NCBI RefSeq assembly: GCF_964204645.1
Contig: NC_134027.1
Span: 25,258,560-25,322,559, forward strand
Direction of reading: 5' to 3'
Length of the DNA: 64,000 nucleotides
Source of the DNA: Tubulanus polymorphus
Taxonomy: Eukaryota > Animalia > Nemertea
A program made the translations under genes and the position numbers. Positions 19,170 through 64,000 of the stretch are shown piece after piece. Position 1 is the first letter of the stretch, and the number at the start of each line of letters is the position of its first letter. The notes beneath the pieces were generated by a model. The model worked only from the letters and a program-made list of their open reading frames with translations. It was not told the origin of the DNA and made no database searches.

Positions 19170-20129
19170 TCAGTGGCTGTTCATTTGAATTTTTTTACAA
19201 CAGATTTTTGAACAGAAATACGCTCGAATTTCTCGTCCCAATAAAAGATAAATGTAAAAATTAACGGAGTAATTACACAATTGAAACTGAGTAAAAATAT
19301 CATACAGAAAATCCCTCTGTCCCTTAGAGATCGGTAAATATACTGTAATAGCGGATGGAAGTGTAAATATTGCAAATGCGAGTGAAACTGTTACAAGCAT
19401 TATTGTCGTACGCTTTGATTTTGTAGTTTTCTTATCGGACGAAACCATTTTTGAACCTCTGAATAACTGAACTATTATAACAGAATTCGATGTAAGAATC
19501 AAACTTAGTGGTATAAAGTAAACGTAGATAACAATTATGATAAAAAATGTTATTTGATCTGATAATTCATAGTAACATCCGAAAAACCGGTCGGAGAAAT
19601 GTATCGCCAAAGTAGGTAGAAAATACAGGATAAGTGTATTCATCCCAATGATTATGAGTATAGCAAATCTAGCGAATCTAGGTGTACATATCAAACGAGA
19701 TGTGAACGGGAAGAGCACAACTGCCACTCGTTCCAGAGATATCGCTACTATCAACCACGAACTATTGGTGGCACAAAGTGACATCAAAAATTCGTAGATC
19801 TGACAAACGATCAGTGAATTCATCACGAATAGAGGACCGTTGTAGGCGTTTAAGAGGACAAATTGTAGAACAGGCATCAAACCGAGATTGATGCAATACA
19901 TAAAATCGCTGACTGACAAAACAATAAGATAGTAGGCATAAGATAAACTGCGAAATCTGCGACTCGTCATGATCAGGAAAGTAGCTGAATTTCCGAAGGC
20001 TCCTAGTAGGAACAAGATAGGTAGAATAACCAAAGCTACCGTTCGGTAGCTGCCAAATTTGTTTGCGACGGACATTAGGATTATGTAACTGCTGTATGTC
20101 CGACCGACTTCCACTTGAGTATGATTCAT
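19170..20129 (-). CDS. Intronless class A GPCR (orphan, peptide-receptor-like), about 319 aa
   Basis: Seven hydrophobic segments, GN in TM1, LSVSD in TM2, ISLERVAVVLFP (DRY-like), FTLP in TM6 and NYSVNFYIY in TM7. First ATG is at 20129; the track starts at a GTG at 20159. Confidence 0.92.
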   Translation of the reverse strand: MNHTQVEVGRTYSSYIILMSVANKFGSYRTVALVILPILFLLGAFGNSATFLIMTSRRFRSLSYAYYLIVLSVSDFMYCINLGLMPVLQFVLLNAYNGPLFVMNSLIVCQIYEFLMSLCATNSSWLIVAISLERVAVVLFPFTSRLICTPRFARFAILIIIGMNTLILYFLPTLAIHFSDRFFGCYYELSDQITFFIIIVIYVYFIPLSLILTSNSVIIVQLFRGSKMVSSDKKTTKSKRTTIMLVTVSLAFAIFTLPSAITVYLPISKGQRDFLYDIFTQFQLCNYSVNFYIYLLLGREIRAYFCSKICCKKIQMNSH

Positions 20130-23935: not shown

Positions 23936-24430
23936 GTCCAGTTCCACAGTTATGTGGGTTTAATTCGACTATGGATCCAGTTCCACAGTTGTGTGGGTTT
24001 GATGTGACCCTGGATCCAGTTCCACAGTTGTGTGGATCTAATTTGACTCTGGATCCAGTTCCACAGTTGTGTGGGTTTGATGTGACTCTGGATCCAGTTC
24101 CACAGTTGTGTGGGTCTAATTTGACTCTGGATCCAGTTCCACAGTTGTGAGGGTTTAATTTGACTCTGGGTCCAGTTCTACAGTTGTATAGGTTTAATTT
24201 GCCTCTGGATCCAGTTCCACAGTTGTGTGGGTTTAATTTGCCTCTGGATCCAGTTCCACAGTTGTATAGGTTTAATTTGCCTCTGGATCCAGTTCCACAG
24301 TTGTGCGGGTTTAATTTCACTGTGGGCCCAGTTTCACATATTGTGTGGGTAACCCAGTTCAATCCACGGTTGTTTAGGTTTAATTTGTCGCTGGATTCAG
24401 TTCCACAGTTGCGTAGTGGGTTTAATTTCA
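23936..24430 (+). repeat. Tandem array of a 39-bp unit (ggatccagttccacagttgtgtgggtttaatttgactct)
   Basis: About 12 units. Related units occur at about 42370-42540 and 59180-59380, and as termini of elements at about 2455-2830 and 50634-50845. Confidence 0.92.
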
Positions 24431-25329
24431 ATCTGCTGGAAATCCGCTACATCGGTTATTTTTCTTTAATGAAATCCTTTCTTCAGCGGACTCGGGTTCG
24501 ATGAATATTAGACGTCACCGAACGCATCTTGTGTATATACGTTCACACGGTTTTTAGCCAGAGAGCAGCGGCGGAGACGACGCGTAATCATCTACTGCAC
24601 AGACATAAAACAACTGTGAATCATGTTTTATTCATGCGAAAAGGGCATAAAATCTAATATGGTTGTGAGATACCGTGCCTTACGTTCTCAATCTCAAGGT
24701 TCATTTTTAATTGAGATATGATGTAGACGCCGGTACACTGTAGTTCGTGTAAGGACAAACGTTTCAAAATCCAATAGTTTCATATGCTATATACATTAGA
24801 TTTGCACGTTATCACTACGTAGTTTTTTCTTTAGATTTTCAGTCATAATTTACTCTCATATTGAAATTTGAGATATCGAGAAATGAAAATATACTAACCC
24901 GAAAAAATAAGTTTTCAGGGAGGGAGGCTAATGATGACGAATTGGTGTGATTGGATGATTTCAAGGACAAACGCTGGGATCGGGGCCAACACGTAAGGTC
25001 AAGGAAAAAACACCGAGGGTCAAGGCCGACATTGCCAAGCATATTTTTGATTGACCCTGTTATTTGTTTGGTTGGTAAATTTCGTTTGATTTTTTTTTTG
25101 ATTGAGTGTCCCTTACAAACCCGAAACGGGGGTTTGATTTTGAAATCGGAAATCGAAGTACAGATATATGTGTGATCGGTGGTCAAATTTACAGATTTTT
25201 TTGTTTATATCCAAGCACGAAATTCGGTTCCGGTTCATTCAAAAAATCTTCCAACCAGTCTGAAACGGCCAACGACTGATTGGGGTCAATTTTTATCTAT
25301 ATTACAAGGTTGAAGGAAGATCATTGACC

Positions 25330-25750: not shown

Positions 25751-27754
25751 ACTATATCATTATCTCATTGATTTTCAAATTATAGTTACACGTAACCATT
25801 TTGACGTCATATTAACGCATTTAACGCTAGCGACACCTGGCGGATCCTGGTGGAATGTCGCTTTGCGAGAACCACCCGTTCAAGAAACGGCGCGAAAAAT
25901 AGGTGAAATTCTCGCGAAGATTTTTTCATGTTTACCAGGAAAACACTTTCGCTCGATCACGATTTTTTGTCATTTGTGCTTCAGAACTCGCAACGGAAGG
26001 AACTTACTTAAGGAAGATGAGATCATGACTTGCTGGACCACGAATTTGTTTACTAGCCACTAATACGATAATGGTTAGACTTTATCCTTTATCCGCTGGT
26101 TCATTTATTCAATTAATAATTAATTCGACTATCGAGCGACATCTGACGGATGCCGTGAAGGTTTCAGGCCGTCGGGTTAGAATCCCGATACAGCTCCGAT
26201 GCTGTCTGCATTCTATGGCTATGAAAGATTCAGTCTGCTGCGAATGCTGTCACCTAAAACCTATAAACCATTGACGAAAGTCTGCACTCAAACCGGTTGA
26301 ACTCTGCAATTATCACCAAAACAATGAAGAAAACCGAAGAAAAAGAAGGAAATTCAAGCATCATGGCCGAATAAATGATCTTGGTCTGAAACCAGCAAAC
26401 GAACAATCCTGACCTGAGTGCAAAGAGATTGGGCACTTGCAAAACCTGTCGAAAAATCAGTCAAACAGCAAAATAAAACACTGAGAGATGGAGAGGAGAC
26501 TCAAAAACAAATGTATTTTTGTATGTTTGTTCACAAGGTGACACTAGATTACATGTGAGACATGTGGTTATTCGCCTACTTTTCATCTTTTCGCTACCTT
26601 GACAGTGGGTAGTTTTGATGCACGTTGGTGGTTTTTAATTAGAGATTTAATCTTTAAAATGGGGCGAGTGATTTATTCAAATTTCCTAAGGATACAAGGC
26701 ATCATCGACTAAAATAGTGCGAGTATCTATCTTATCAAATGTGTGAAGTGTGATTGCTGGTGGTGTGGTTTCTTATCTATGAAGTCTGGGGGGAGCAGTC
26801 ATGCTATGAATCAGTGTTAAAAGCCTATACACTAAAACGTGTTGTTTACTCAAGAACCGACAGAAAATTTAGCAATTATGGCCGGATAAATATTCTTGGG
26901 CCGAAACAAGACTGACCTGAACTCGACTGAAAACAAGGCAAATAGGTAGGCGACTCCGCAAAACCTTTCAGAATAATCAGTCATCGAGGATGTTAAAACA
27001 ATGTTGCATTTGTAGTAAACATTTAGAGGAAAGGTTTTGATGTTTGAAGAACAAGGCGCGGCATCATTGCCCGCCGTGTATATTTTGTATTTGGCCCAAT
27101 AGTGACCAGAACTACATTCAGCCTATCAACGCTTTGATACTAAGGGCGCATATTCCATCCGCACGGATATAGTCTTTAGTAATTCTATCTTTACGCCTTA
27201 AACGCAGGATATTCTGATCGAATCGGGCATGGAACAACTTCTGATAGTAAAGTTTGAAGGATTTATTATTGATAGTATTGATAGTATGCACAGGGAAGCG
27301 AGTATCATATTTACAAACACCGTAGTAGAAAGCATGTGCACAGCCAATACTCAGAAAGGCGGTTCAGTCTGCTGCCCCTTCAAACACATAGACGATCAGT
27401 TTTTTGATAAGATTTCTATTATCTTGTGTTAGTAGTTTATTTCCGATTAAAAGAAAATATTGCGCGTGAATTCTTCAACACATCGCTGCTCGCCCACAAG
27501 AGGTGATCGATCAGTTGGCATCACATTCAGAGTCTGGTTGCTTTAAAGCGAAACCAAATTTCCCTTTAACCTTGAACGTTGTAGTCACAGTGATACGGAG
27601 GGAACTATAAAAATCCTTATTCAAACTGATACTGCACGTACACGGCTGTTTTTCTAAAATTACCGGGTTTGCTAGTGATGGGCGTGGCGCTGCTGCAAGT
27701 TGAATCACGTTGATCCAAAATCTACATTTGTCAGCGTCGGACGAAAATCCATTC

Positions 27755-28891
27755 ATGGCAGACGTAAACGCGATGAAAGATTCAAATATTTCAACGCCGA
27801 CGACTACGATCGAACCGATCGTAAAGACCTGGTCGAGTGTGTGTGATTGGGCGAAGGACACGTATCCGCCCGGCTGGGATCTCATATTCAGTGTTTACAT
27901 GTATATATTTGGCTACGGGTCGCTCACAGTTTGCGCTATTATTTTAAACACGATCACGTTTTTAGTGTTGAAGAAAATGGACAATGAAGTTTATTATTTA
28001 ATCAAAGTCTTAGCAGTTTTTGATGTATCTTACTGTACAAGTGTATTCATCATGTACCCTCTACGCACTATTCACCTCTTTGTACATTTAGGTAGAACAA
28101 TATTCCACTATGACGACTGGCATTTTGGTTGGGAATTCATTACAGTGGCTTTAGGACCATATTACATGTTTCAACAAATTCGAAACTGGTGCGTTGTTCT
28201 AATCAGTTTGGAAAGACTTATCGTTACACTTTTCCCGTTAAAATCACGAATGTTCTGGACTCGAAAAGTTGTGAATTCTCTTGTTTTTCTGATCTCAATT
28301 TTCGGTTTCCTTTGCTTTTTGCCGATGTTTATACCGAAATGGCAACTAGGTGCGGTTTCGTGTTTCGGCTACAAGTCAACGTTCAGTCGTCGTAATCGAC
28401 TTTTTCCACAATACTGGAGTTCGGTATTAGTTCACTGGGAGGTACATTCGACAGGAAGGTTGGGAACGATACCCACTATCATACTACCAATGCTTTTATT
28501 GATTCTTTTAAACGTTATTTTAATTCTATCGTTAGTAATTATGAAATTTACAGCCAGGAAAGATTTAAGAACTGAACGTTCTAACACATTAGAATTGAGG
28601 GCTTTGCGAATGGCTTTCGCTTTGATAGTCGTTTTCGTAGCTTGTGAATCTTTATTGTTCCTTCAACAAATGGAGTTTTTTTCACAAATCAAACTTGCTA
28701 TACCGGCCCTTCCCGTAAAGATGAATAGCTTGATGGTCTTCAGAAAAATCGCAATCTCCCTGACCCTCTTAGATTCCTGCCTGAATTTCGTCGTTTATTG
28801 TTTTATCAACAGTAAATTCAGACTGACGACTAAACAGTTAGCAGTTCAATGCATAGCGCGCGTGACACGTTCGAAAAACGTACTAAAATAG
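27755..28891 (+). CDS. Class A GPCR with intronless CDS (orphan, FMRFamide/sex-peptide-receptor-like clade), about 378 aa
   Basis: Seven TM segments, LAVFD in TM2, ISLERLIVTLFP and LDSCLNFVVYC. First ATG at 27755 is preceded by an acceptor-like tttgtcag at about 27734. Confidence 0.92.
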   Translation: MADVNAMKDSNISTPTTTIEPIVKTWSSVCDWAKDTYPPGWDLIFSVYMYIFGYGSLTVCAIILNTITFLVLKKMDNEVYYLIKVLAVFDVSYCTSVFIMYPLRTIHLFVHLGRTIFHYDDWHFGWEFITVALGPYYMFQQIRNWCVVLISLERLIVTLFPLKSRMFWTRKVVNSLVFLISIFGFLCFLPMFIPKWQLGAVSCFGYKSTFSRRNRLFPQYWSSVLVHWEVHSTGRLGTIPTIILPMLLLILLNVILILSLVIMKFTARKDLRTERSNTLELRALRMAFALIVVFVACESLLFLQQMEFFSQIKLAIPALPVKMNSLMVFRKIAISLTLLDSCLNFVVYCFINSKFRLTTKQLAVQCIARVTRSKNVLK

Positions 28892-35413: not shown

Positions 35414-36689
35414 ATGTTTAAGAACTTACTCCGCAGTTTTGCGAAACCATCGAAAAATACAAAAAGAACGTCTAAATCGGCCGCAAAATATGAATTGACC
35501 GGAAACAAAACTCAAATCGATAACGATTCAATTCGGCAAGATGAGGCCTGCTCCAACGGCGCATTGAAGGCGGAACGCTCCGAGAATCCGTCCCAGCCCA
35601 AAAAACAAGTTCGTCTGCCCATGGACGAACACGTGGTCGTCTTGCATATATGCCCGAATGCGCACGCGACGGAAACCGACTCCGAATTCCCGCTGCAAGT
35701 TTTCAGTAATGATCCAGCAACGTCATCAACGACTGCGAAAAATGGCAGAAAAACTCAGAAAATCGGCGACAGCATCAAAAACTACGCGACCGTCCCATGC
35801 ACTAACCATAGATATCCTTCTAGTAGCAACTATTCAAATGGTTGTACGACACCCGCCATCAAGCCATGCATTAAACAACCAGTACCTCATATTGAACCGA
35901 AAGGTAGCACCGACAACTATAATGTCTACCTGGAAGATGGCCGGGTATTCATGTTTGCTCATAGGAGGTAAGGGAAACGTAACTGCATTTGCGGTTGGTA
36001 GGTGGAGCGTGGGGTCCTGTTTGGTTTTTCCAATTGGCTACATATTTTGGCTCTCTCTCTAATAAATCAGTTATAAAACTGAAATTATGGTCAATTCACA
36101 GCGCCAAAAGCTTTTCGCTTTAATGGAAGTATTTCGCTTGATGGCAAAGCGCGTCTTTAGCCATTTAACGGCCACTGACGGTCAATATAATTGATGAGTG
36201 AAACTGAGCTTACGCCTGGTCATATTAATGTCTCGTGGGTTCGGAACCCTCGGGTGGTCTTGTGGTATTAACTTTTTAGTCTATTTTTCCTTTCATTGCA
36301 GGCCCCGCGACTATCTAATGTGGTGTTCATACGCCTGTATGGTAATTGCATTTCCGTTCGGTTTGATGGCTTTACTGCTGACTCTATCCAGCAGAGAGGA
36401 TATGAAAAATTCAAACAACGTTCTGACCAATTCGGCCCGTCTGAAACGCGACGTAGCTTCACTCGTTTTAATGATCGGTTTGATCACGCTTATAACAGCA
36501 GTTTCTACTACTTTATGCTTGAATTTGCACGTATTTTTGCCCGCGTCGACAACGTCGAAGCCGACAGTCGCCAGTCCGCGGCATTCGAAACCGAATTACG
36601 GTGATATAGAGTCGATTTATCAAAGCGCCAAACGCGACCACAGAAGCGAAAACAAAGTCGACAACAGTCGATTAGAATTAGGCTCTTGA
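35414..36689 (+). CDS. CD225/dispanin (IFITM/PRRT-like) membrane protein, about 313 aa, 2 coding exons
   Basis: Exons 35414-35967 and 36302-36689 join in phase 2. RPRDYLMWCSYACMVIAFPFGLMALLLTLSSRE, followed by a second hydrophobic helix, fits the CD225 pattern P-x-DYL-x-W...P-x-G-x-x-AL...SR. Confidence 0.78.
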
Positions 36690-41267: not shown

Positions 41268-43579
41268 ATGACGACATCAAAAAGCGCTACGATCGTTACT
41301 CGTTCAAACGGCTCGACTGTTGACAGCATGGAAGTGTCGGACGCTGAAAGACTAGAGGATACCCTTACGACGTATCACTTACAAAGGATTTACAGACCTC
41401 GTTTGAAAAATACGGCATTTCAGTTTACGAGATATCCGATGCAGAAATGTCTGTTAATCGATCAGGTAACAAGTAACTATAGTTAGGGAAAGGCTGAATC
41501 TAGTTTTAGGTCTTAGTTGCTTGAAAAGTTCAGCTCTGATTAGACTGTACGGTGTCTTACTCCAAGAGTAGTTTGAATACCAGTCGATCATACTGGTTAC
41601 CACTAGAAAAGCTGAATCTCCGAATATCTGAGTACGGTGGAGTTTGTTTCTGAAAAATTCAGTTATCTACTTTCTCTACAGTAAAATCAATGATATAATA
41701 CTAACGCGTGTGTAAGGAAGAATTAAGAATATTTACTAACGCGATACTGAAAAACTAGAAATTTATTGGAATGACTTCAACATTTAATCGGAATTAGATC
41801 CAACGCGATTTCATATGTATAAATCGTGATGACGATTTCCATGAAAGGTTCTATGAATATAGAATCGTTTGTGTTGCGTTAAAAATCACAAAATAAAGCA
41901 AAATGTCGGTCGTGTGAAATTATGAACGACAACTCTCACGTTACAATTAAACATGTTCCATATTTCAGTAGAACTTTGAGTACTGATCGTCTATGACATT
42001 TCGCCTGGGGACTTTATACAGCAAACGTAAAAATCGGGAAAATCCTTACAACTGCAGCAGCGCTGTTCGACGTCACCTGCTATATTTTAAACCCAAACTA
42101 CGCAACGTTTTTGTTAGTTTGACGTAGATATCTAGATTTAACTCGGTTCAGTTTTTATTATTTTTGTTTGGTTTTTCAATAAGGAGAAGAGGGAAACTTT
42201 TAGAAGATTAACAGACACGAAAATCCATGGTTCATTTGGAAGATTGATTTATACCACGGCGCTAGAACAACGTCAGATTCACACGCCGCTACCAGTGACA
42301 CCTATATCTACTAAATGTACGTCATCATCATATTCATTAATTTATTCATTCAATGTCACCTTGTTGCCCCAGTGGTGAACCTGACTCCGGAATCTGTGTG
42401 TAAATTTAGCTCTGAGCCCAGTGTGTTGGTTTGATATGCCTCTGGGTCCAGTTTTATATTTGTGTGAGTCCGATTTTACTTTTATCTAGTTCCGCTTGTG
42501 CGGGTTGAATTTGACCCTGAACTCAGGTGCACAGTTGCTATAAATCAAAAAATCATTGAGATTTTAGATCTATAGATTTATCTAAAAACTCATAAAAGAT
42601 AAAGATCCAGGACAAAAGTTCAGCAGTTATTGGTTCAATTGATTCTAGAGTTAAAATAAGTGCATTGCCAATTTTTAAACTCTAGTTACATCTAATCCAC
42701 GAACTGTAAAACTGACTCGAGTTCATCCCCGCGGGGGGGATTTCGTCAAATAGTACGATCTATGAAATTGGTTTATTTCCATTTAAAGGTGTTTCGCCGA
42801 GTGCTATAATTGTTCGTAGTCGAACTGGGGATATCTTATCAACCAAACATACATCCCTATGCGACTGGTTCGAATCTCCTCCACCTGACCTTGACGATGT
42901 GCTGAGATGGCGAACAACAAAACGGTAAGCAATCTTGAAATAATCCGACGTGGATCCGTGGGATCGACGAAAAGAGAATTCCTCAAACCGACTCCGGTGC
43001 GTAGAGGTCCGGTTTCTGGGTAAAGATTCTTGCAGGGACTTTGGTCGATAGTGGTGAATATGGGCGCATGATTTGGGTTAATTTCTATTGGATAGCGGAA
43101 CCCCTATCTGCCATTATGGGCCATATCTGACATATTTTGGGCCCAAATATAGGGGAACTCCTATATCGTTTGATGTGGGTTCACGTGGAACCAGAAAATT
43201 TTTCCCGGTTGTTATTTTCAGAATTGAAAAACAAGTCAAACAAGATTTCAGCCGAAACGAAAATAACAACTATCCGCTATCAACAGTTTTAGTGCGGTGG
43301 CATCGGACACCGGGTGAAAGTGGTTACAGCAAACAGCAATTGAGAGAGATATTCAACGAATTCGGTCCGATTCGAACTATCAAATACTCGAGCTCGTGCA
43401 GTGCGGTGGTAGTGTTCGAAAATCTGGTCGATAGTTGTAAGTTGATAACGGCGGCGGCGGCGACAAGTCAGTGGTTGGGTGACAAGCAAAATCGATTGGC
43501 GTGCAAATGGTACCACAGCACGATGTCGACGAAAAAATTCTATTTTAGGGGACAGGGCATGTGGGTTCGGTACAACTGA
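41268..43579 (+). CDS. TEX56/C6orf201 (DUF4523)-like protein with a C-terminal RRM-like fold, about 274 aa, 4 exons
   Basis: Phase-consistent exons 41268-41465, 42184-42316, 42789-42924, 43222-43579. PLSTVLVRW...FGPIRTI...SAVVVF...SC...LACKW resembles the TEX56 C-terminus. Start codon uncertain. Confidence 0.72.
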
Positions 43580-50928: not shown

Positions 50929-53900
50929 ATGAATTTTAATTTGGATCAGACTCGTGGTGCACCGTCGTTCTATGATCCTGCAGCGGGGTCTCGGATTCGA
51001 ATAGTCGGCCAAAGTCAATCGCAATCGCAACTCTCACAAACAATGCCAATATCTATAGGACCTGGACTTCTTAGTAGACAGAATCCTATGACCATGTCGA
51101 CGCCCTCGTTAAACTTTAACGCCGTCCCAGACGGGCCCCGACCCCAGCCGCGAATTCCCATGATGCCTAACTACCGCAGTATGACTGCCTTGAACAGCGG
51201 GCAGTTTTCTCCAGGAATGAGTCCCATGTCGCCGGTGGTGCCCCCAACGCCGAAACTACCGCTCGAAGAACTCGAAAATATCGTCGAGAATCTACAGATG
51301 AGCATCTCGAGCGGGAATATCGAACAAGCTCAAATCTGCGCGAGTCAACTAGCAGCGAACGCGACGAAGATCAAGATGGACCTCCTGGAATCGGAAACAA
51401 TAAAGGAAAAAGTGACATTTAGGTAAGGCTCTGATGGATACTCGGATGCCTATCAGGACAATTGCAAAACCTTTGAAATCCATCCTCAAGTAATTATAAT
51501 CCACTTACCAAATCAAAGGAAACTTAGTTAGTCCGCTTATTAGTGGCTAATTTATTGGTATGAGTTTAAGTGTTTAACAAAGTATTTAGCTGAAGTTAGT
51601 TAGCTAGTCTAAGTTTAGTTAGTCTAATTTATCAGAAGTTAGTATCTGTGCTACTTTAGGGTTAAAATTTACTTCTGGCGGCGGCGGGGGGGGGGGGGCA
51701 ATTGTCCGGGGGGGAATTGTCCTAGAATCACTCGGATGGATAGTACGATTTTTTGAAAACACGAAAGAAGCGAATTTTGCTTGTACGAACTTTACCTAAA
51801 CAAACAGAGTGAATTTCTTTAATTTTTCAGGCTGAAAGTTTACGTAGAATACAAGAATCTGTCGGCAGGATTCGTTCTCCTTAACGTGAATCCCGACATT
51901 AATATCAAACAACTTAAAGAACAGGTAGTTAACTCTAAATAAATGATCTACGGTCATCAAAGTCAGTTATTACATTCCACTGCCCACTTTATAGAGTCAA
52001 AATCCAACTCAAATTACCATTTCTTAATAGAACCAAATTCATTATTATGCACTATGTTTTTCTTGGTCCCAACTGGTGTTAGTATTACATACTTAATCTA
52101 TATTCAGATTGTCTAATTATTGTGCATCTGACCACTATTTGGTATTCCACGTTCAGTTTCTTCTAATATACACTTCAGTTGCAAATCAAACCTTTTCTCT
52201 CGAATAAGTCTCTTATTGATGAAAAAGATACAAATCGCTGAGTAGAAAAATGAAGTTAATTTATATTCGGTGGTTCCTGGGATAATTTATGGATTCAGTT
52301 GCTTAAGAATTAGGTTCAATTTTGACAATTTCACACGATCTGCCGGATTGCGTTGTAGTTGCCCAGATTCGCAGTGAATAAAGTTTGTTGATTCGTCGAT
52401 TCATTCAGATGATGCTGCACCACAAAATTCACACGAAGCTTCAGAAATGGATCGTCGGTAATAAACTGTGTAAAGACACCGATGTCCTGTCGAGTTTAGG
52501 CTGTAAAGGCGACCACGCTGTATTTCTGTACGTGATGTCGGCTAGATTCGCCGGCTTGGAGAAAGATAAAGCCGAACGAGACCAGAGAAGATTGTCTATG
52601 GGAGGTTCGCTTCTTTTCAATTCGTGAATCATCAGTTTTCATTGTCAGAATCACCGGTTTATCAATCAACCCTTTTAGTGCAGACAAATCCTTACTCTAA
52701 AGTAAATATGAATAACTTGAAAATTCCACCGATGTGCAGTGGATATACCACTCAAGTGCATGTACATTACGATGCAGTGTATTGTTAGTTAATAATATTT
52801 CACAATGTCTGACAGATGCTGCCCTCTTTCGATAGAGATTATCAGCGGATACACTGAGGTGCAGTGTATTAGCACAGTCAATCGCTGATTTATACTCTTG
52901 CCTCCCATGTTCAACTTTTAAGTGTATTTATGAGAAATATATTTATTTTCTAGGTCTGATGCCCGAAGCATCTGAAGAAGGTAAGTTCGATGAATTTAGA
53001 CCTGGATGTTCACTAGCATTGTCTGTATTTTACTTGTATTTTTTGTAGAGGGTTTTGTTCTAGTGAACAGGGATGAGGTTCCCGCAACAGCGCCGAGACT
53101 TGAAGCGTGGCCCGAAGAACCAGTTGAGAACCCCGCTGTTAGACAGCGCGTCGTGCCTCAGGAACCGGTTCAACAGTCGTTACCTAATAATCAACCGGAA
53201 ATCGGACAAACTGTCCAGGTTTGTATCAACTACTGTTGCCCCAAATGACAGAATTACGACCCATTTTCGCCGCTATTGCCCCTGAATTTGCTTGCTGCTT
53301 TGGTAAAAATTGGACCTGTGAAATCTAAGACAAGCGCATGGAAATTTTAGATTGCTAGATGACAAGTTAAATCGAATACTTTCTGTCTATGTCTGACGTA
53401 TTTGACTGCGTTAATTGACTGAATTCTTAAGCAGATCAAGTCAGGGAAAAGTCAGGGAAAAAGCAAGTCAAATAAAACTGGCCCCCCCCCCCCCCCCCCC
53501 AGTGAAAAATGATGACGATGTGAAAATTCCATTGTACACCAATTTCACCGCTGATAATCTATATTTGTAGAAACCAGCGTTGAAATGGACGTGTCAGGTT
53601 TGTACGTTCGAGAATCAGCCGACGCGACCGGGATGCGAGATGTGTTCGACCGATCGACCGGACGACTTTCAAATACCCGACGACTACGAATTGACGCGCG
53701 AAGAAATACAGCGCAAAGAAGCCGAAGAATTACTCGATTTACAAACGCAAGAGGTACGCTTTTAGTATTCTCAACCCAGTTCAATAGTTGTCCGATGCTT
53801 ACAAGGTACAGTCAAACGAGCTTAAGTCGTCATAGTTGGGATGATCGTTTCAGATCAGGGAATTACAGATTTGCTTTCCTCTGCAGAATTCCGACTTTCT

Positions 53901-56900
53901 TTGAATATGAGGGAATTTTAATTTTCGGTGTCTTGTTGTTCTTGCTGGTTTTGAGTGGCGCGAAGAAACAGTCCCCTGAGGATGTCTGTTACTTTGATAT
54001 GGGAATTTTTCAGGCGAGGGTTAGGGAAATATCAGGAGTTTTGGATTTCCCAATCCGTAAAGACCCTGTTATGTTGATGACTTACTGAGAGGCGCAGTGG
54101 CCGAGTGGTGTTAAGCTGCTAGTCATTGATCTCGTCAATCCAGGATTTACGGGTTCGAATCCCGGTGGCGGCAGAGTTTCTTGGTCGAAGGTTCTTCACC
54201 GGTCTCTCCCCCATTGGGAAAAAGAAACATCGAACCCATTGATAATGCCCTGCTTGGCGCTCAGTGGGTCGAGGGAATTTAAAAGGAAAATGACTTATCC
54301 AAGTGAAAAATGATGAGCACTGGAAATAAAAAAGGGACTCAAAATAGAGACAACTCAAGCGTATGAAGACTTATCTGATGACGATTTTTGAAAGAAGTTT
54401 GACTGTATTTTTAATGAAAAGTTTTCTCAACATTTCTGTTTGTGGTAAACAAAACATCTTTTCGAGTTGGAAAATTCTAAGTTCTGCTCATAAGGTTCCA
54501 GTACCGCCTCCTGTCCATTAGCCCCAAAAATTTAGGTCCATTCCGCTGTTTTGGATGTCATTTCTGAAATGTTGCAGTGATAAAGACATGCCCCTAATCC
54601 TCCATAAAGTAAAACCTTGTAAATACATTATTGAATAGAATTCGAGGGCTGGCTCAATAGAAAAACATTGCATCATTGAGCTTTGCCAGTTGCGCAAAGC
54701 TTAGATTTAAGACCAGTCGAAGCTATCTTGGTTCTACAACTTCTAGTCTAGATATTCATAACCCTTTTGGACTAGGCTCCCGAATTGTAATTTTATCACT
54801 GCATCGTTTCAGAAATTAAACACTCCTCCAGTCGACAACGACAAACAAGATCTCGAAAAGGATGAAGACTTGGCTAGGATGCTTCACTTCCAAGACCTTT
54901 TCGCTACTCAGCTGGTGAATCAACTGCTTCTACCACCAGCTCATGTTGCTGACTCTGATTCAGATAGTGAGAACAATGCTTAGAATATGATATAACATAC
55001 AGGGATCAGTCGCTCAGAGGTTGGTTAAAGATAACTGGTGGATGAATACAATAGTTACAGTAAACTATTAATTAGTCACTACGTCAACTATCCACTGGTT
55101 TTACTCTAACCAACTTTTAAGCAACTTGCCCCAGCTTTTGATTATGGAGTAGACTGCAAAAAGAAATATATCTGATTCGAGCAACATATTGGGTCACAAA
55201 ACACTTCCAAAATATCCCAAATTGGATTGATCAAACTTGTGCAGAGTCTAAGACCAGTAACGAGGTTCCACAGTATCTTTTGAAGACCAGTAAAACAAAT
55301 CCAGCGTGTGATTCGAACGTTAGCAAACATTCCGAAATTCTCACAAGGTTTATCATGTATTTTACGTACCGGTAATGTCTTCAGTATGGTTATGATTTTT
55401 GACTGAGATAAATCTTTCTTTATGCCACTTATTTGCACCAGATGATTCACATTAGTCAATAACTGCTGTAAATGCTGTACAAAAGTGAAGTATTTATAGT
55501 AGATGTTAACCCCCTTAAAAAAAACTACCGCTGGTATTTTATTCCCAGTCCATGAAACCAGGCCCCTAGAACAATAAATAAACTGTCCCTGCCCAGCTGA
55601 TGTGATAAAAGAGTGGTTCAGCTAGTCTATATATATTCCTCACAGGGGTCTGACACAAACAGTTTTTGACCCAGTACCCTAGGTACTATGTATAAAAAGA
55701 CTATAAATATAATAAGTCTTTTTATATATAGTACCTAGGATACTGGGGTCAAAAACTTTTTGTTTTGTGTCAGGCTCGTGTGATATACCTACTTGTATAT
55801 AATGCATGTGACTTAGATTTTATTTGAATTTCGAATATCCAGTAGAAATGAGTTGAACCGCTCTTAATAACTATGATGTACATAAAGTAAATATGTGATT
55901 AGAATTTAATAAATGGTTTTCAATATAGACAAATCTCTTGTTTTTGCTCTTTTGTTTATTTCGTTGGAAACATGGCATTAGGCTAAAAAAAAATTGATAC
56001 CTTGTTTCTCCGCTCTGCTGAGCTTAAATGTTGACCCGGCCGGCCGCCTATCTACCCTATACATTACTTTTTTTTAAAATCGTGATCAATTTTGCCATAA
56101 CAGACCCGGCCGCTGTAGAAATGAACTGTTTACAAATTTTATCATATTTAACAAAAATGACCCGGCCGCTGCGGAGAAACAAGGTATCATTTTTGTTTAG
56201 CCTTAAATAGATTACTGAAAACGTGACGTCACGGCACGTGGTATTGACGTCACGCAGCGAGTACAGCTGAAGCAACAAGTGCCTCGTCAAGTAGCCTACA
56301 TTGGCCGTTGAACTTTGACTTGATCATTTGGAGGAATTTAGATTTGTATGACTGACAGACTGATATTAATCTCAGTATCTCAGACTTAATGAGCAAAACC
56401 CACAGTTGATGATTCAACAATTTATTCTGATAGTTTCGAACTGTTCGACAGTTTCAGAATTTCATCAGAAAAACGAAAATCAAAATTTCTATTTCGTTGA
56501 TGATGAACTTCAGTCGAAACTGTCGGAATAAATTGTTATATCATCAACTGCGGGTTTTGCTCATTACATTTTTATGAACTGATAGAATATACACCTCTGT
56601 GGAGAGAAGAAAAAATTACGTCAAGTTTTGATCAATGCCAAATTACTTTGTTAAACCATCTTCAACGAACGCCAATATTCCGAGACCAGTTCTCGATTGA
56701 ATTTGACATTTTGAGTTAAGATTTACAGTTAAAGGTCTTTAATAAAGGTCTTGTATAATGCCACGGTTGGGATCGATACACAACATGGCGTTATAACGAA
56801 TTTGGTGCGACAAAAAATGTATTCCCGTTGAATTGAAGTTAGATTGAGCAAATTTGTTCCTAGAAGAAAAATGTCGGTGTTCAAGTGATCGGTGGCATTA

Positions 56901-59095
56901 AAAAGGATGGCAGCGTTATAACAAACTTTGACTGTTTTTTGAAATGTTTTAACTTCGATAGGTTTTAACCGACAACTCGAGAAGTTGGACCCAGAATAAA
57001 TCCAAACCTGACATCGTTGGCTCTGAAATAGAACAGTAGCGCAAACCTGAATATTTTTTTCTCGCGTTGGTCCAGACTTATCAGTCTCAATTGAACCGTA
57101 AACAATTTTGTCATAGCCCGAATTGGCCACCACAATTTGTACTGTATTTTCACCTATCCCTTCTGTCTGGTCTAATAGATTGTTTGGCTTTCTTCTTTTT
57201 TAAAAGGCTGAGCACATTCGTCAATTAGAGCATGAACACCAACGAGTGATCAACTATCATTACTTAGTTGAACAAGAAGAAACATTAGACCTTGTCGCCA
57301 ACAGTGAAATGTTTTATTGTGCCATTTGTTTTGATGAAGTTGATCCCGGAGAAGGGGTCGTTCTCAGAGAATGTTTACATACATTCTGCAGGTACTTTGC
57401 TTGACATTTTAATTCATTGATCGATGGTCCCTTGCATCTCCATTCTCTCGGAATTGAGAATCTTTGAAAGTGTCCCACATTTCTTTGAATATTGCAAATG
57501 TTTTTGTTAAGCCACAAATCCAAAAGATTGCAAATGAAAGTTTCATCGATTTCACTTGAAATCTGAAAACTCACTGGAAATATTGTGTACTTACTGGGAG
57601 CCAAAAAAATCGAAATTCTTTTCAATGAACACCGCTCGAACGTAGGTCATAATATATTTATAGGGTCGTAACTGGTTTCTGTTTTTGGCAGGTCTTGTCT
57701 CCAAGGAACCATTGAAAACAGCGAAGATGCGCAAGTGCTTTGTCCATTTACCGACGGGAACTACTCTTGCGATAAACCACTGCAGCACAGGGAAGTGCAG
57801 GGGGTAAGATTATAAAAAAATATTGCATGCACCCAAATATTGCATGATGCCGCATGCCTATCGTTCAGTTGTATGGACCGTTTAAACCGTATGAAATCGT
57901 GATTTGACCACTTGTGTTTGGTGGCCAGTAAGACACGCGATGACTTCATCAGACCTGAAGTAGTTTCTCCACTTTCTAAGAGCTCCAACGTTCTGCTGCA
58001 AAAATATCAAAATATTCTCAAAATCTGAAAAATGTCTAGTTCATTTTCAATTAAACAGCTATTTCATGTCAAATTACTACCTCTCATTTTTGCTTAAAGC
58101 TACTACTAAAGATTAGAAATATTAGTTAGTCTTGTCTGTGCCATGTACGTATACCTCTAAACCTTAAATAACGTCGACGTTTTACTTTCGAACCACTCCT
58201 CAATTTTTCAGTTAGTTTCTGCCGTTGGTTTTGAGAAGTATCTACAACGCGGTTTGGCAACCGCTGAATGTCAAGCCAGCAACAGTTACCACTGTAAAAC
58301 GGCTGACTGCGGAGGCTGGTGTATTTACGAAGATGAAGTCAATGTATTCAACTGCCCGGTCTGTGGCAAGAAAAACTGTCTCACCTGTAAAGCTATACAC
58401 GAAGGTCAGAATTGTAAGGAGTATCAGGATGATTTGAGAATTCAGGCGGACAATAGCGAGGCCGGTAAACGAAGTCAAGAAATGTTAAAGGTATCGGAAA
58501 TCTTGATTCGGGCGAATTTCATCGGTTTTACGTGAAATCAGTTTACAGCAGGCGCGGGTCAGAAATAAAGCGACGTCATTCCACGTGGTAAAATTTGAAT
58601 GACGCCCATGCCGGTGGGAGCACTTAAGATGGTGGCCTTGGTCCTCCCTAAGATATTCTCTACAATATTTCGTTATCATAAATAACAAAAATTTCTTCTA
58701 CACTTCAGTACTTAATAACGTCTTGATCGGTATATTTGTAGGGATTAGTCAAGTCCGGTCAAGCCATGTTCTGTCCCGGATGTCAGATATTGATACAGAA
58801 AAAGGAGGGCTGTGATTGGCTACGATGTACGATGTGTAAGATAGAAATATGCTGGTGTACTAGAGGCCCTCGTTGGGGTACGAATGTAAGTTTCAGAAAT
58901 TTTTTTTTTTTCGTTGGAAAGTTTTCACTAAAATCGTTCTTCTACTGAATAATTGTATTTTGCTACAAAAATGCATCTGTTCATTTTTTAATTGACAAAT
59001 TGTTTTATTTCCAGGGAAATGGTGATGTTTCTGGTGGTTGTAAATGTAGAGTAAACGGTATTTTGTGTCATCCTACGTGTCAAAACTGTCATTGA
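50929..59095 (+). CDS. RBCK1: HOIL-1/RBCK1 RBR E3 ubiquitin ligase (LTM-UBL-NZF-RING1-IBR-RING2), about 654 aa, 11 exons
   Basis: Exons 50929-51422, 51831-51924, 52409-52604, 52954-52980, 53049-53218, 53571-53753, 57207-57391, 57692-57803, 58212-58490, 58742-58885, 59015-59095; 1965 nt, in phase. [23 protein letters not shown]; RING1 CAICFD...[12 protein letters not shown]; [10 protein letters not shown]; HOIL-1-type end [20 protein letters not shown]. Confidence 0.96.
54088..54370 (+). mobile_element. tRNA-derived SINE in RBCK1 intron 6
   Basis: A box TGGCCGAGTGG (54098) and B box GGTTCGAATCC (54152), followed by a non-tRNA body. Related B-box heads at about 32200 (+) and 7815 (-). Confidence 0.7.
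54813..54983 (+). CDS. Candidate alternative terminal exon of RBCK1 (short LTM-UBL-NZF isoform)
   Basis: Acceptor gtttcag in phase 0 with exon 6. 56 sense codons [31 protein letters not shown]...[10 protein letters not shown], then TAG. Confidence 0.5.
   Translation, partial: KLNTPPVDNDKQDLEKDEDLARMLHFQDLFATQLVNQLLLPPAHVADSDSDSENNA
55003..55133. mobile_element. MITE-like inverted-repeat element
   Basis: gttggttaaagataactggtggat mirrored by atccactggttttactctaaccaac. Confidence 0.5.
55639..55783. mobile_element. Palindromic MITE-like element
   Basis: tcacaggggtctgacacaaa...ctaggtactat mirrored by atagtacctagg...tttgtgtcaggctcgtgtga. Confidence 0.6.
55981..56202. mobile_element. Tourist/PIF-Harbinger-like MITE, complete
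   Basis: TIR GGCTAAA...TGATACCTTGTTTCTCCGC / GCGGAGAAACAAGGTATCA...TTTAGCC with TTA on both sides (55978-55980, 56203-56205). Confidence 0.88.
56387..56566. mobile_element. Palindromic MITE-like element
   Basis: taatgagcaaaacccacagttgatgat...agtttcga mirrored by tcgaaactg...atcatcaactgcgggttttgctcatta. Confidence 0.65.
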
Positions 59096-59179
59096 GAAAG
59101 ACTAATCATTTTAGGAAAATGGTTTACTGTGCCTCGATTTAGTTATGATACATGTAATCAGACAGCATTCTGGTTATGG

Positions 59180-59380
59180 TACTGGATCCAGTTAACTAAT
59201 TTGATACTGAACCAGTTCCACAGTTGCGCGTGTGGCTGTGGGTTTGATTTGACTGTGGATCCAGTTCCACAGTTGTGTGTGTGTGGGTTTAATCTGTCTC
59301 TGGACCCAGTTTTGCTGTTATGTGGATGGGTTCAATCTGTCTCTGGACTCAGTTTCACCGTTATGTGGGATCCAGTTAGA
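59180..59380 (+). repeat. Degenerate array of the 39-bp repeat family, just after the RBCK1 stop codon
   Basis: ggatccagttccacagttgtgtg units. Confidence 0.8.
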
Positions 59381-62300
59381 TACAGCATATGTCAGTGGCT
59401 ACTCGGTGTTATTTTGATATATTTGTGAAGAAATATATTCATCCTGAATGATGCAAAAAAGATGCAAATTTTCGAATTGACGAAAATGGCAACCTCAATG
59501 GGAAAGCGGGGGTCCAGACCCGTGACCATCCCCTAAAATCCGCCCGCTCTGTCTTATGTCTCGTACGAAGCTGTTAATTGTTATCATTAAAACATGAAAT
59601 GTCTGGTTGCAATTAATCTTCATCGAAACTGAATCCGTCTAATTTGAAATTCAAATGTATTGAAATTTCATTTAAATGTTAAAAAGACGCGTTTTGAACG
59701 AAATGTTCCCGGTCTCAATATTCATGCAATCTTGAAATTCTATATAAGGTAGACAAACGTAGCGCTATCTTTTGACCCGTTTATATAAGACGGTTCCATT
59801 AGAATATTACAATTATATGTATGTCAAACATGTTGAATTAAGTCATCTGTAAATAAAATTGAATTCGCAGAATATATACGCGGTGCATAATGTATATCGC
59901 TGTTGAATAAATTATAATCTGATACTAGATTTTTCATTTTTGATTTTTAATGGTTACCCAAATAAAGGCAACAAGTGACTTGTAACACAACTAGCTTTTT
60001 ACCATCGGTAGATCATTTCCCTTCATTGTTGGTTTTCGAGGAGCAGGTGGTAGCTGAATGAAAGGTCGAACGAATGATGCATGCATTGTTAGGGCTACAA
60101 GATGTAGGACGTTTTTCTATCATGAAAACAAAGTGTTCTCTATCTAGCTACTACATTATCAACACATGTTTCACTTCTAGGAAAACCACTCGAATTGCGA
60201 TCGATATTTTTACTGAAAATAACATTTATCATACTACGTGACAGGACCGATGTCTACGTGCGGTTGCATCAGCGCATTGCGCTACAGTCGCGCGCTACCC
60301 CTAGAGCGGTAGCGGTACAGGGGATGGTGAAACTGCGGGTGGTTAGACTCCATCCAGAACATCAAAGCTCAGTGCTGCAATTACGGCTCTCAGTGAGAGA
60401 CCTTGGATTCATGACTGTGTAGCGTGTTTACGACTGATAGCTTCTAGGAAATGGTTGGATTATATGGAAATGATAAAAAACACTAGTGTATGTGTAGCTA
60501 CACACATTCAGTCAGTCAACAAGTTGTTCGCGTAGAGCCGAGCTGACATGGTCCCTCTCCTCCTAGCATGTTGAATGAAGCATGGTCCAGCAGCTCTTCG
60601 GGATAATCAACTGATGTACTGGTCTTCTGATTAATACCTACAAGGTAAGATTCACTTTTCATTGAACTTGATTAGGTTTAAGAGACCAGTGCTTGTCGAG
60701 CTCTACCATTACTCGGAAGTGGTACATAACATCACTTCTCTTGCATCATCCGATTAATTTTTGTGCGCCTATATAGTTTTATATATCGGAATTTGAAAAT
60801 TTATTATAATATTAACTAATATAAAAAAGTGGCCCGAGTTTCCTCATGGACAGACATCTTATTGTATCCACTTACGGTGTATTTCTGATGTCGTTTGATG
60901 TATTAAATCTATTTTGTATCCCGCGAATGTTTTCTTTGAAAAATGTCTTTGAACATTTATTACTTTGAATATGATTTATGGACGAGAATGACAGGTCTAG
61001 GGCCTATGTATATACAAGGTGCAATTATCCGTGCGAAATGCTGAATGTTATCATTCGATGTTTTCGTCTGCGAACCGAGATTGAATAAAGTCCACGCAGA
61101 TTATTTACAACTAATATCAAAAGTCAATTCGTTCGCCCGTAGACAGACGTATTAAAAACTGGGGCAACCAGGGGCGGCGAGGAGGTTCCTTAGAAAAATA
61201 TACGCAATGATTTCAATGAGTTACCCGGCGAGGCTATCTCCATATAATGCACCATCCCAGTGCGATGTAAAGATTTTTCACGATTCTTTGAAAATGACCG
61301 TGACCCGGTTTTTACGCCTTAAGAAGGCGATCCTTCTCGGTGAAACCAGGGAGGTTCATCCCCAAGATTAGCATAGCAGCATGAATATTCCGTGGTCATC
61401 GTAAACCCGACAACTCGCCGATTCGTCACCATAGGCCGAGGCTGAGTTCCCCAAGGCGATCTTCACGGTATAGGTCTACCTTTTATGCACAATTGCACAT
61501 GACTTTTATAAGTCATGTCATCTTAGTCTTTATGGTAGTTAAATCTAAGCTACATTGCACAACACTGGCCCATGGGGACTGAGGGCATAGGCCGGGGACA
61601 GCCCTCGATGATATGGTTTTTGTCAAACCTCAACCTCAGGAGCCGCTATATTCATGGAAATCCTAGGTACGTGACAGAAGCATTTTACAAATGCACCTCT
61701 CCCTGCATCAGAAACCTTATTGAGTTGTTCTCTTATCCGGCGTCGTCACGCTGTGAATGAATTACCATTTACCGCAGAAATGTAATTATTTTGTCTTTTA
61801 AATGTCGAGATATGAAAATTACCCGACGAAGCAAAAACAACTCTGCTGATTAGAAAAGAAGTAGAACAAATTTCACACTTGCGCGTTTCAATGCGGGATC
61901 GCTTTTTCGGACGTGTTTGGACAAATAAGCCGAATGTATCGGTAATAGAGCGAACTCGATGCGCTGTCATGACTCACTTCCAGAAATGGGCTTGAATCTA
62001 AGTCACTCGTAGATTACCAGGTCTTGTACGTGTCGCCATAGTTTGTTTGCCCGTCAGCTTGGAGACTTGCCGTGTGATCTAACATGGGATTATTTACAAT
62101 ACTCGAATGTCTGTCTGGTAAATCACTTATTGTATTGAGTGACCGGCAATATGGCGTATAGTCACGTGAAAAAGAACACGATGCCACAACTTTAGTTGGT
62201 CCATGGTTTGTAAACATTTGGGCCTGTTCTCCCTTTAGAAAAACCACCGTATTTTTCATTGCATCTGAAATAACGGTGCAAACTGTAACCGGCAAAATTG

Positions 62301-62462
62301 GTCCGAGGTCAGCGAAATCGGAGGGTTCGGAACATACGTTAGCAAGTCAGAAATGATTTTGGCTTTTGTCCCTGTATAGTCAAGAAGAGTTCCAGTCGGC
62401 CTCAGCCGAGTTTTATACTTATCACTTTTTATTAACTTGAATCGTTTGAAATCTATTTTCAG

Positions 62463-64000
62463 ATGTTGAGACGAATCGCTTTTAACAACGTCATCCAGTT
62501 TGTTGAGCCTCACGTGCTCAGCTTCACGCCGTCGGATCCGCCTCTGTTAGAAGTCGACGGACAGAGGTATCCGCAATGCAACCTCGGTATTTTCGTCGGC
62601 GAAAACGGCTCCGGTAAAAGCAGCATCTTCGAATTGATCGTCTCGTGCGCAGCGCCACCTACGACGGTCATAGAAACCGGGGAAACTGGCGGTAAATCGG
62701 ATAGCCGCGCGCGCAGCGCCACCATCATACCGAACACGCCTTCGAATGGTAAATCAGGGTATACGTTTTGCGAGTTTGAAATTCCGACGTCGATGGGAGC
62801 GAAAATGAATCTTCCGAATTCGGCGAGGAGAACGTCGACCGGTAACTACCTGGTCATCCTCGGTTTGGAGGTGCCTGGTCAGACGAGAGAGAAGATTCGG
62901 CGTATAATCATTCCCGTAGACAGTTCCAAAGACGAAATCTGCTCGAGACGCCGCGGAGTTTTCGTCATGCTTCTGACGTCGGAAAAATGCGAGCAATTGT
63001 TCAAAACCGAATCCGACGTCATCGGTATTCTTTCCAAATCGGACGTGGCCAAACGGAACGACGTGGCGAACGTTGATTGGTTGGACATCGGCAACGTTTA
63101 CGAACAAATAACGGATTCGATAATCGTCGGTCATCGCTACAGTCAAGAAGATTTCGACTTGTACATAAATAAAGCTAAGGAACACCCGGAGTTTGTAGCG
63201 CGAGTGCACGACGTGTTTTTCAAAATAATCGGTAACACCGACTATCAGTTCGTGATCGAAGACGGTCAATTGTTTTGCCGTGAAATGAACGACGCCGCCT
63301 GCGAGAGCAAGACGGAAACGTGGCAGGCGCCGTCCGGAATTCTCGACGCGTTTCTTATGGCTTTCTATCTGTCTCTGGACGATAAACTGACTTTACTGTT
63401 AGAAGAACCGATCAAATCGATGCATCCGCTCTTAGTGCGAGCGTTGAGGGACATTTTCCTGCTAGGGGTCACCGGTAAAACTGTCATCGCCGTCTGTCAT
63501 TCGGAGCGGTTGATAAGCGCGTACACCGTAGCCTTCATGTTCCGTTTCCGGCGCGTACGCATCCAAGATGGCGATCGAATTCTGCGCGCGTCGAAAATCT
63601 ACGAGTTGAAGAATCTAGCCGTCACCAATCACGGCGGTCACCCGTTCGCGTATCTTACCGTGGAGCGAATTCGGGACGTCCTATTCGCCAACCGAATTCT
63701 GTTCGTCGAAGGTCGCGACGACCGACGATTCGTTCACGCTACTCTCGATCTGATCGAGAGAAAATACCCCGGTATTCTTCGCATGTGCGGCGAAGATGTG
63801 GAACAACTGATCGGTCCGTTAACGCAGATATCCGTCATTCAGATGGACGGTAAAATGCACATGGATTCGTGCGTTTACGTCGCCGAGAATTCCGGCTTGA
63901 AAAAACGCTACGCTTTGCTTCTCGACCGAGACGTGTTGACCGGAAATGAGGTGTTCGTCTCCAGTTTCGTGCAGACGTTGAAGAAGTTGTTAGAATTTTA
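62463..64000 (+). CDS. OLD-family ATP-dependent nuclease (ABC ATPase plus TOPRIM), more than 512 aa, 3' end beyond the window
   Basis: Stop-free frame from ATG 62463 (MLRRIAFNN) to the window end. Walker A GENGSGKS (62598), signature-like APSG (63327), Walker B/D-loop LLLEEPIKSMHP (63393), H-switch VCHS (His at 63498), TOPRIM LFANRILFVEGRDD (Glu at 63708) and DxD LLLDRD (63924-63932). Confidence 0.9.
   Translation, partial: MLRRIAFNNVIQFVEPHVLSFTPSDPPLLEVDGQRYPQCNLGIFVGENGSGKSSIFELIVSCAAPPTTVIETGETGGKSDSRARSATIIPNTPSNGKSGYTFCEFEIPTSMGAKMNLPNSARRTSTGNYLVILGLEVPGQTREKIRRIIIPVDSSKDEICSRRRGVFVMLLTSEKCEQLFKTESDVIGILSKSDVAKRNDVANVDWLDIGNVYEQITDSIIVGHRYSQEDFDLYINKAKEHPEFVARVHDVFFKIIGNTDYQFVIEDGQLFCREMNDAACESKTETWQAPSGILDAFLMAFYLSLDDKLTLLLEEPIKSMHPLLVRALRDIFLLGVTGKTVIAVCHSERLISAYTVAFMFRFRRVRIQDGDRILRASKIYELKNLAVTNHGGHPFAYLTVERIRDVLFANRILFVEGRDDRRFVHATLDLIERKYPGILRMCGEDVEQLIGPLTQISVIQMDGKMHMDSCVYVAENSGLKKRYALLLDRDVLTGNEVFVSSFVQTLKKLLEF

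Follow-up and report, generated by a model that had tools for sequence, protein, structure and literature searches.

The closest described relatives of the gene reported here are the OLD nucleases, in which an ABC-type ATPase is combined with a TOPRIM nuclease domain. The abstract of PMC12445682 reports that P2 Old, a class 1 OLD, kills through removal of the anticodon arms of tRNAs, and abstracts or passages of that paper and of bioRxiv 10.64898/2026.07.10.737580 describe it as an ATP-activated tRNA nuclease. The passages from the latter also describe an inactive P2 Old tetramer that converts to dimers upon sensing DNA hairpins or ends, as well as archaeal OLD homologues that can regulate DNA replication. 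Other OLDs cleave DNA with two metals, according to passages of PMC6755086 and PMC10568477. In the Thermus scotoductus (Ts) and P2 enzymes, Glu takes the place of the Walker B Asp, His that of the D-loop Asp, and the ABC signature is degenerate; Schiltz et al. found the matching residues to be required in both proteins (passages of PMC7049728).

OLD-like genes have also been described in eukaryotes. Maaroufi (bioRxiv 10.64898/2026.08.18.745644) reported them in SAR, chytrids, Capsaspora, Placozoa, Cnidaria and bivalves, and further in Rotifera, Nemertea, Hemichordata and Cephalochordata (amphioxus). The proteins are 577–844 aa long, the genes have or lack introns and are transcribed in several groups, expansions occur in oyster and Capsaspora, and no eukaryotic GajB was found. 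According to the same preprint, transfers to Capsaspora and Crassostrea had been noted by Krishnan et al. in 2020. The preprint is computational and itself calls for functional studies; its nemertean example is Cephalothrix simula, and Tubulanus is absent from its main text. Beyond this preprint, the literature listings that we searched showed neither another report on OLD-like genes of animals nor an assay of such a protein.

Here we analyse such a gene in a 64,000-nucleotide stretch of DNA from the ribbon worm Tubulanus polymorphus (the window). The original prediction implied that an OLD nuclease in an animal would be new, which did not hold up, as invertebrate OLD-like genes, nemertean ones included, are covered by bioRxiv 10.64898/2026.08.18.745644. 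The finding of OLD in an animal is thus already in print; the protein described below, P0002, is itself new as far as we have seen, and Tables S1–S3 of the preprint may list it.

On the + strand, 512 codons run without a stop from position 62463 to the window end at 64000, in agreement with the predicted unbroken frame of more than 512 codons; at the frame's base composition, the chance of such a run is about 2e-11. It appears as a 3′-open frame at 62436..63998. This coding exon (62463..64000, +) encodes residues 1–512 of P0002, an OLD-like ABC-ATPase/TOPRIM protein, and continues past the window. P0002, the whole product of 894 aa, is encoded on a 27,807,848-bp contig, matches the frame over all 512 residues and is the sole member of its 90% cluster in the protein collection. 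All motifs named in the prediction were located in the expected order: GENGSGKS at residue 46, APSG at 289, LLLEEP at 311, SMHP at 319, VCHS at 344, ILFVEGRDD at 412 and LLLDRD at 485.

Profile and structure searches likewise confirmed the predicted pairing of an OLD-family ATPase with a TOPRIM domain. On the frame, the score of Pfam AAA_21 was 37.2 bits against a cut-off of 27, that of OLD-like_TOPRIM, at 24.3 bits, lay barely above the cut-off of 23.2, and PADLOC returned 38 families at E ≤0.1 with AriA, AbiLi, GajA and Old in the top rows. A RhoGEF match on residues 501–623 (20.3 bits, below the cut-off of 27.6) was dismissed as generic helices. When the query and 19 of its matches were combined into a profile, the top solved structure was that of T. 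scotoductus OLD (6p74; E 1.8e-21). An AlphaFold2 model of P0002 with a mean pLDDT of 62 had the same structure as its top match both in Foldseek (E 1.4e-7) and in VIA, which aligned 340 positions within residues 1–891 at Z 18.4 and rmsd 4.8; Gabija GajA was matched as well (8x5i_D; Z 16.3, rmsd 4.7, 393 aligned). An OLD-family ABC/SMC-type ATPase is present at the N-terminus, where AAA_21 and Rad50, SMC and OLD structures match. By every testable sequence feature bar the uncertain Q-loop, the gene is to be placed in the OLD family.

Among the prokaryotic systems, class 1 OLD (6P74, P2 Old), which is also the best structural match, shares with P0002 the domain order, the Walker B Glu, the D-loop His, the degenerate signature, and the E/DxD and D..E metal sites, the second of which is followed by a basic residue. 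It differs in that sequence identity is 14–18%, the P0002 Q-loop appears to be without His or Arg, an insert of 330 aa has no counterpart in 6P74, and the P0002 gene has a eukaryotic exon–intron structure. GajA (class 2) shares the ATPase–TOPRIM fold, but no UvrD-type GajB gene lies upstream of P0002 within the window: the 93 window frames scanned, which cover the upstream side, gave no UvrD/PcrA/Rep helicase match. PARIS AriA/AriB and Retron-Eco8 OLD have related ATPase and TOPRIM domains. In contrast to PARIS, where these are split between genes, P0002 carries both in one unbroken frame, and in contrast to retron OLD (class 3) it has neither a reverse transcriptase nor a known ncRNA upstream, as the window frames scanned held no reverse transcriptase and Rfam gave 0 matches, the upstream side included. 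Upstream of the coding exon come the gene's own intron, its first exon and then RBCK1, with no retron parts.

The likeness to the eukaryotic OLD-like proteins of Maaroufi is closer. These, too, combine ABC-ATPase and TOPRIM in a single chain with Walker A/B and nuclease residues kept, are encoded by expressed stand-alone genes, occur in Nemertea, and carry an extra helical insert in the equivalent part of the TOPRIM domain (oyster residues 555–606). P0002 is longer than their 577–844 aa, its insert is several times longer, and it keeps the D-loop His, where Cephalothrix simula has Asn.

When 1.84 billion representatives were searched with HMMER, 97 proteins reached E ≤0.001; one of these is the query, and the remaining 96 match over part of their length at 25–40% identity. 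Among 20 high-ranking matches, all seven that carry species names are from animals, namely six bivalves and one hemichordate, to which P0002 is thus akin. We aligned the 59 of the 97 proteins that had at least 480 aa and a Walker A motif, which left 58 homologues for comparison. In Walker A (G46–S53; 62598..62621, +), G46, N48, G51 and the catalytic K52 are invariant (58/58). The degenerate ABC signature APSG (residues 289–292; 63327..63338, +), for which the family consensus is P-E-G, has its G292 in 58/58. Walker B E314 and E315 (63393..63428, +, together with the D-loop) are each Glu in 47/58 and otherwise mostly Asp; the D-loop His H321 is kept in 57/58, as is the H-loop His H346 (63492..63503, +). 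In the TOPRIM domain, the catalytic E416 is found in 55/58 and the metal-B D420 is Asp in 51 and Glu in 7 (63696..63722, +), and D488 and D490 of the DxD motif (63915..63932, +) are Asp in 55/58 and 50/58, respectively. Beyond the window, the metal-B Glu E835 occurs in 51/58 and the Lys K852 in 46/58; to judge from its place in the order, K852 would be equivalent to R487 of Ts OLD. D833 occupies a position that is otherwise S/T, like D541 in P2 Old. Helices 228–256 are predicted with good confidence where the dimerisation region is inserted in the OLD ATPase.

The predicted insert is the one trait that marks P0002 out and that makes it the longest member. It starts at 63933..64000 (+), comprises about 330 aa that are predicted to be helical, and its remainder lies past the window, as do E835 and K852. 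The span from the first Asp of the DxD motif to the metal-B Glu is 347 residues in P0002 versus a median of 68 and a maximum of 278 in its relatives (47 of the 96 matches were parseable by patterns, and 13 members of the same cluster were left out). The C-terminal block 816–892, which took no part in homologue retrieval, is recovered at E 4.9e-12 by a profile from which the query was left out; the nuclease domain is therefore split by the insert, not truncated. The insert is predicted to be all-helical at low confidence (pLDDT 40.6 in a single-sequence model). Its best match in 116 homologue records, at E 0.04, was not significant, and it had no fold match with Z ≥8 among 48,161 chains (best Z 7.5), and in the Atlas only unnamed clusters (0.90–0.91, TM ≤0.31); these null searches would not by themselves amount to a new fold. 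At the same TOPRIM site, P0004, P0008, P0065, P0096, P0075 and P0009 carry unrelated spans of 178–278 residues; insertion there is thus recurrent, and the site is a hot spot for it within the eukaryotic OLD-like family.

Taken together with the bacterial precedents, these features favour a stand-alone OLD ATPase–TOPRIM protein acting as a switchable two-metal nuclease that cuts tRNA or DNA and so shuts down a cell holding foreign or aberrant nucleic acid, a reading to which we assign a probability of about 0.55. We favour it by analogy with class 1 OLD, including P2 Old, and a cell-autonomous antiviral or defence role would likewise be carried over from these bacterial relatives. By the same analogy, a dimer or tetramer would be held inactive through the ATPase and the dimerisation region until a trigger opens it; E416/D488/D490 and D420/E835 would then bind the two metals, and K852 would stabilise the cut. 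The helical insert, beside the nuclease cleft, might determine which substrate is cut or how the enzyme is regulated, and the altered Q-loop might weaken or retune the control by ATP; both suggestions are speculative. For this reading we count the Pfam matches, the first rank of 6p74, the kept catalytic columns, the splicing seen in two studies and the flank-like read depth (see below), the seven animal names among seven named relatives, the query-free profile scores (see below), the P2 OLD precedent, and the share of synonymous differences. The last comes from at least six coding differences among 40 rows listed, with 125 further rows over the 7 kb: four are synonymous and two, T172A and H241Q, are not, and no motif is touched. 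Against a synonymous-site share of 0.23–0.29, four in six gives p 0.03–0.06, which is only a hint of constraint on the gene, and the signal is weak because these differences come from the 40 listed rows alone. Against it we count the apparent loss of the Q-loop Arg, the archaeal homologues that can regulate replication, and the lack of a close paralogue among the proteins returned, in contrast to oyster and Capsaspora, where the gene family has expanded as an arms race would lead one to expect.

The foremost alternative, which we consider credible, if unlikely, is that the nuclease activity of P0002 serves housekeeping, in DNA replication or repair or in RNA processing, and not defence. The replication role of archaeal homologues in passages of bioRxiv 10.64898/2026.07.10.737580 would fit it, as would the structural kinship to SMC and Rad50 heads and the spliced contigs from two studies. 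The window holds one copy of the gene, and a word search with residues 1–512 returned only P0002 among 7993 scored candidates; with a 20-row alignment as the query, only P0002 and one distant protein were returned. Since the word search overlooks the 96 HMMER relatives, it speaks against close paralogues only. The patchy distribution, the 25–40% identity of even the best matches and the swings in copy number, on the other hand, suit conflict genes better than core genes.

More doubtful is a crippled ATPase, in which P0002 would be an ATP-independent nuclease or scaffold under the control of its insert, or a gene in slow decay. At the probable Q-loop (D205–G210; 63075..63092, +), the Arg found in 51/58 homologues aligns with L207, or with I209 in a second alignment, so that the family Arg is apparently replaced by a hydrophobic residue. 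The predicted model has a pLDDT below 50 over 109–217, and the register of the Q-loop is therefore uncertain; by eye, Lys 175 offers an alternative. Nearby family-typical columns (K288, E291, E295, R318 and G319) also differ in P0002, which moreover forms a long branch of 1.01 changes per column in our tree. Passages of PMC7049728 report that the Q-loop substitution H140A abolishes the ATPase of Ts OLD and that ATPase mutants of this enzyme still cut DNA in vitro. The prediction of an apparently catalytically intact nuclease thus stood for the nuclease site, Walker A, Walker B, the D-loop and the H-loop, and did not stand for the Q-loop. Improbable, in our estimate, is a rewired OLD in which a new helical sensor of 330 aa, inserted in the TOPRIM nuclease, replaces the ATPase switch, the Q-loop being lost, making a protein-triggered, tRNA-cutting antiviral effector from a separately acquired lineage kept beside RBCK1/HOIL-1, which is presumably an immune ubiquitin ligase.

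Such a separate origin can be considered in its own right. In a query-free profile search, P0002 scored 253 bits versus 34–104 for five prokaryote-looking rows, and thus appears closer to eukaryotic than to prokaryotic OLD-like sequences; the sequence set of this profile was seeded by P0002 residues 1–512. The phylogeny, built from 46 rows and 287 columns (23 bivalve-type, 18 deeper and 4 prokaryote-looking rows, the last so labelled from their sequence), keeps P0002 apart from a starred clade of 23 rows, to which every named bivalve row belongs, and joins it to that clade plus five rows at 81/88. AU tests reject neither the constrained grouping of P0002 with the four prokaryote-looking rows (p-AU 0.39) nor its placement inside the subclade of named bivalves (p-AU 0.058). 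With regard to the metazoan/Asgard cluster 1 of Maaroufi, the tree gives 81/88 for a join with the bivalve-type group and leaves both other placements unrejected. A P0002–P0091 pairing with 99% in a first tree was lost in a fresh alignment and was rejected as an alignment artefact. P0030, P0061, P0082, P0087, P0091, P0096 and P0097 form a supported clade (96/93) apart from the bivalve and hemichordate groups, and the hosts of this P0030/P0091 clade may be protists or fungi.

We regard it as distinctly improbable that P0002 arrived by a transfer of its own, with a prokaryote or protist as donor and independently of the OLD-like genes of bivalve type in animals. The position outside the starred clade with a join at only 81/88, the unrejected prokaryote-looking grouping, and the 512 codons within the window without an intron would be in keeping with it, but P0002 shares eukaryote-type N-terminal and C-terminal blocks, nesting in the bivalve subclade is equally unrejected, and the metazoan cluster of bioRxiv 10.64898/2026.08.18.745644 already includes a nemertean. 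Nor did the scans return a close donor: viral contigs gave 305 pattern matches with 0 confirmed, phage records gave no match, and in GTDB genomes 0 of 27 stretches contained the single protein. Seven GTDB loci, which came from the 1 part in 64 that was scanned and had matches of 21–59 residues (E 2e-5 to 1e-4), were not used.

We compared four public runs over 57000–64000: X1, X2, X5 and X6, of which X2 and X5 are from different studies and X6 consists of raw DNA reads from a third. One contig each of X2 and X5 skips 1818 nt bounded by GT..AG, with 28 (X2) and 68 (X5) letters on the short side; the joint occurs 0 times in the X6 DNA reads and 0 times in X1. RBCK1 introns are skipped as well, four in X2 and two in X5; neither run is on record as RNA, and we take both as such from the skipped introns. 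The skipped segment is a 5′-UTR intron (60645..62462, +; GTAAG...TTTCAG) preceded by an untranslated first exon (60409..60644, +; 5′ end approximate) that is covered by the X2 contig and joined to the coding exon in X2 and X5. The canonical acceptor reads …TATTTTCAG and is followed directly by ATG. An in-frame TGA lies 11 codons upstream of this ATG in exon 1, with no ATG in frame between, and position 62463 is therefore the start codon. The ATG is not the beginning of the gene: it abuts a splice acceptor, and the untranslated exon lies 1.8 kb upstream. Within the frame, the X2 and X5 contigs are gap-free. They bear on the existence of the spliced form and not on its level, tissue or induction.

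The surroundings are those of an animal genome, as predicted: the window contains GPCR reading frames and RBCK1-like exons, one of which, at 58212–58487 and thus 4 kb upstream, has 100% identity to a protein labelled Tubulanus polymorphus, encoded on a contig equal in length to that of P0002. X1, which may be the window's own source, spans 61490–64000 in a single contig at a depth of 34 versus 25–28 on the flanks, and X6 covers 30/30 bins at a depth alike in the OLD-like frame and RBCK1. The GC and GC3 of the frame (0.51 and 0.63) resemble those of the RBCK1 exon (0.53 and 0.64) and are higher than in the two GPCR frames. It is extremely improbable that the frame stems from bacterial contamination or from a false assembly join, as a spliceosomal intron joint in two studies already refutes it, along with the X1 contig, the X6 coverage and the RBCK1-like composition, even though the frame's GC and its CpG ratio of 1.78 are above the window average, X6 depth falls to about 2 near 59.8–60.0 kb, and no single piece listed bridges the full 7 kb. 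The OLD-like gene is a spliced, expressed and host-integrated ribbon-worm gene.

Directly upstream lies an intron-rich RBCK1/HOIL-1-like gene (51088..59095, +; start approximate) with an IBR match and four joints in X2. A minisatellite with units of about 40 bp occurs in the RBCK1 3′ region (59197–59377) and at 23936–24435; X6 depth there is about 100-fold, and it is therefore a high-copy genomic repeat. Pfam further identified two single-exon rhodopsin-family GPCR frames (19173–20171, −; 27704–28888, +) and, at 43082–43576 (+), an exon that matches RRM_1 as well as DUF4523 (41.7 bits, cut-off 27). A frame at 36198–36689 (+) has two hydrophobic stretches and a weak match of 17.1 bits, below the cut-off of 27.1, to CD225, the interferon-induced transmembrane/dispanin family. 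Together with RBCK1 and the OLD-like gene, this frame might point to a cluster of immune genes, though this may be chance. Three long frames at 11458–14817 (−) resemble exons that belong to a single protein, secreted or extracellular; Pfam gave nothing above cut-off for them, and the product, beta-rich by eye, is presumably laminin-G/pentraxin-like. Two copies of a 1949-bp segment (102–2048 and 3566–5510; 97.9% identical, 3464 bp apart), in whose scanned frames Pfam found no match, reflect either tandem duplication in the recent past or a haplotype left uncollapsed.

P0002 does not establish a class of its own, and assays would be easier with the shorter proteins of bivalves or cnidarians. For the family, the site between the metal-binding halves of the TOPRIM domain tolerates inserts of about 50 to 350 residues and is a natural place to seek sensor or specificity modules. 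For the ribbon worm, the locus, with its promoter region, 5′-UTR intron and splicing in two studies, provides direct evidence that one animal OLD-like gene is domesticated.
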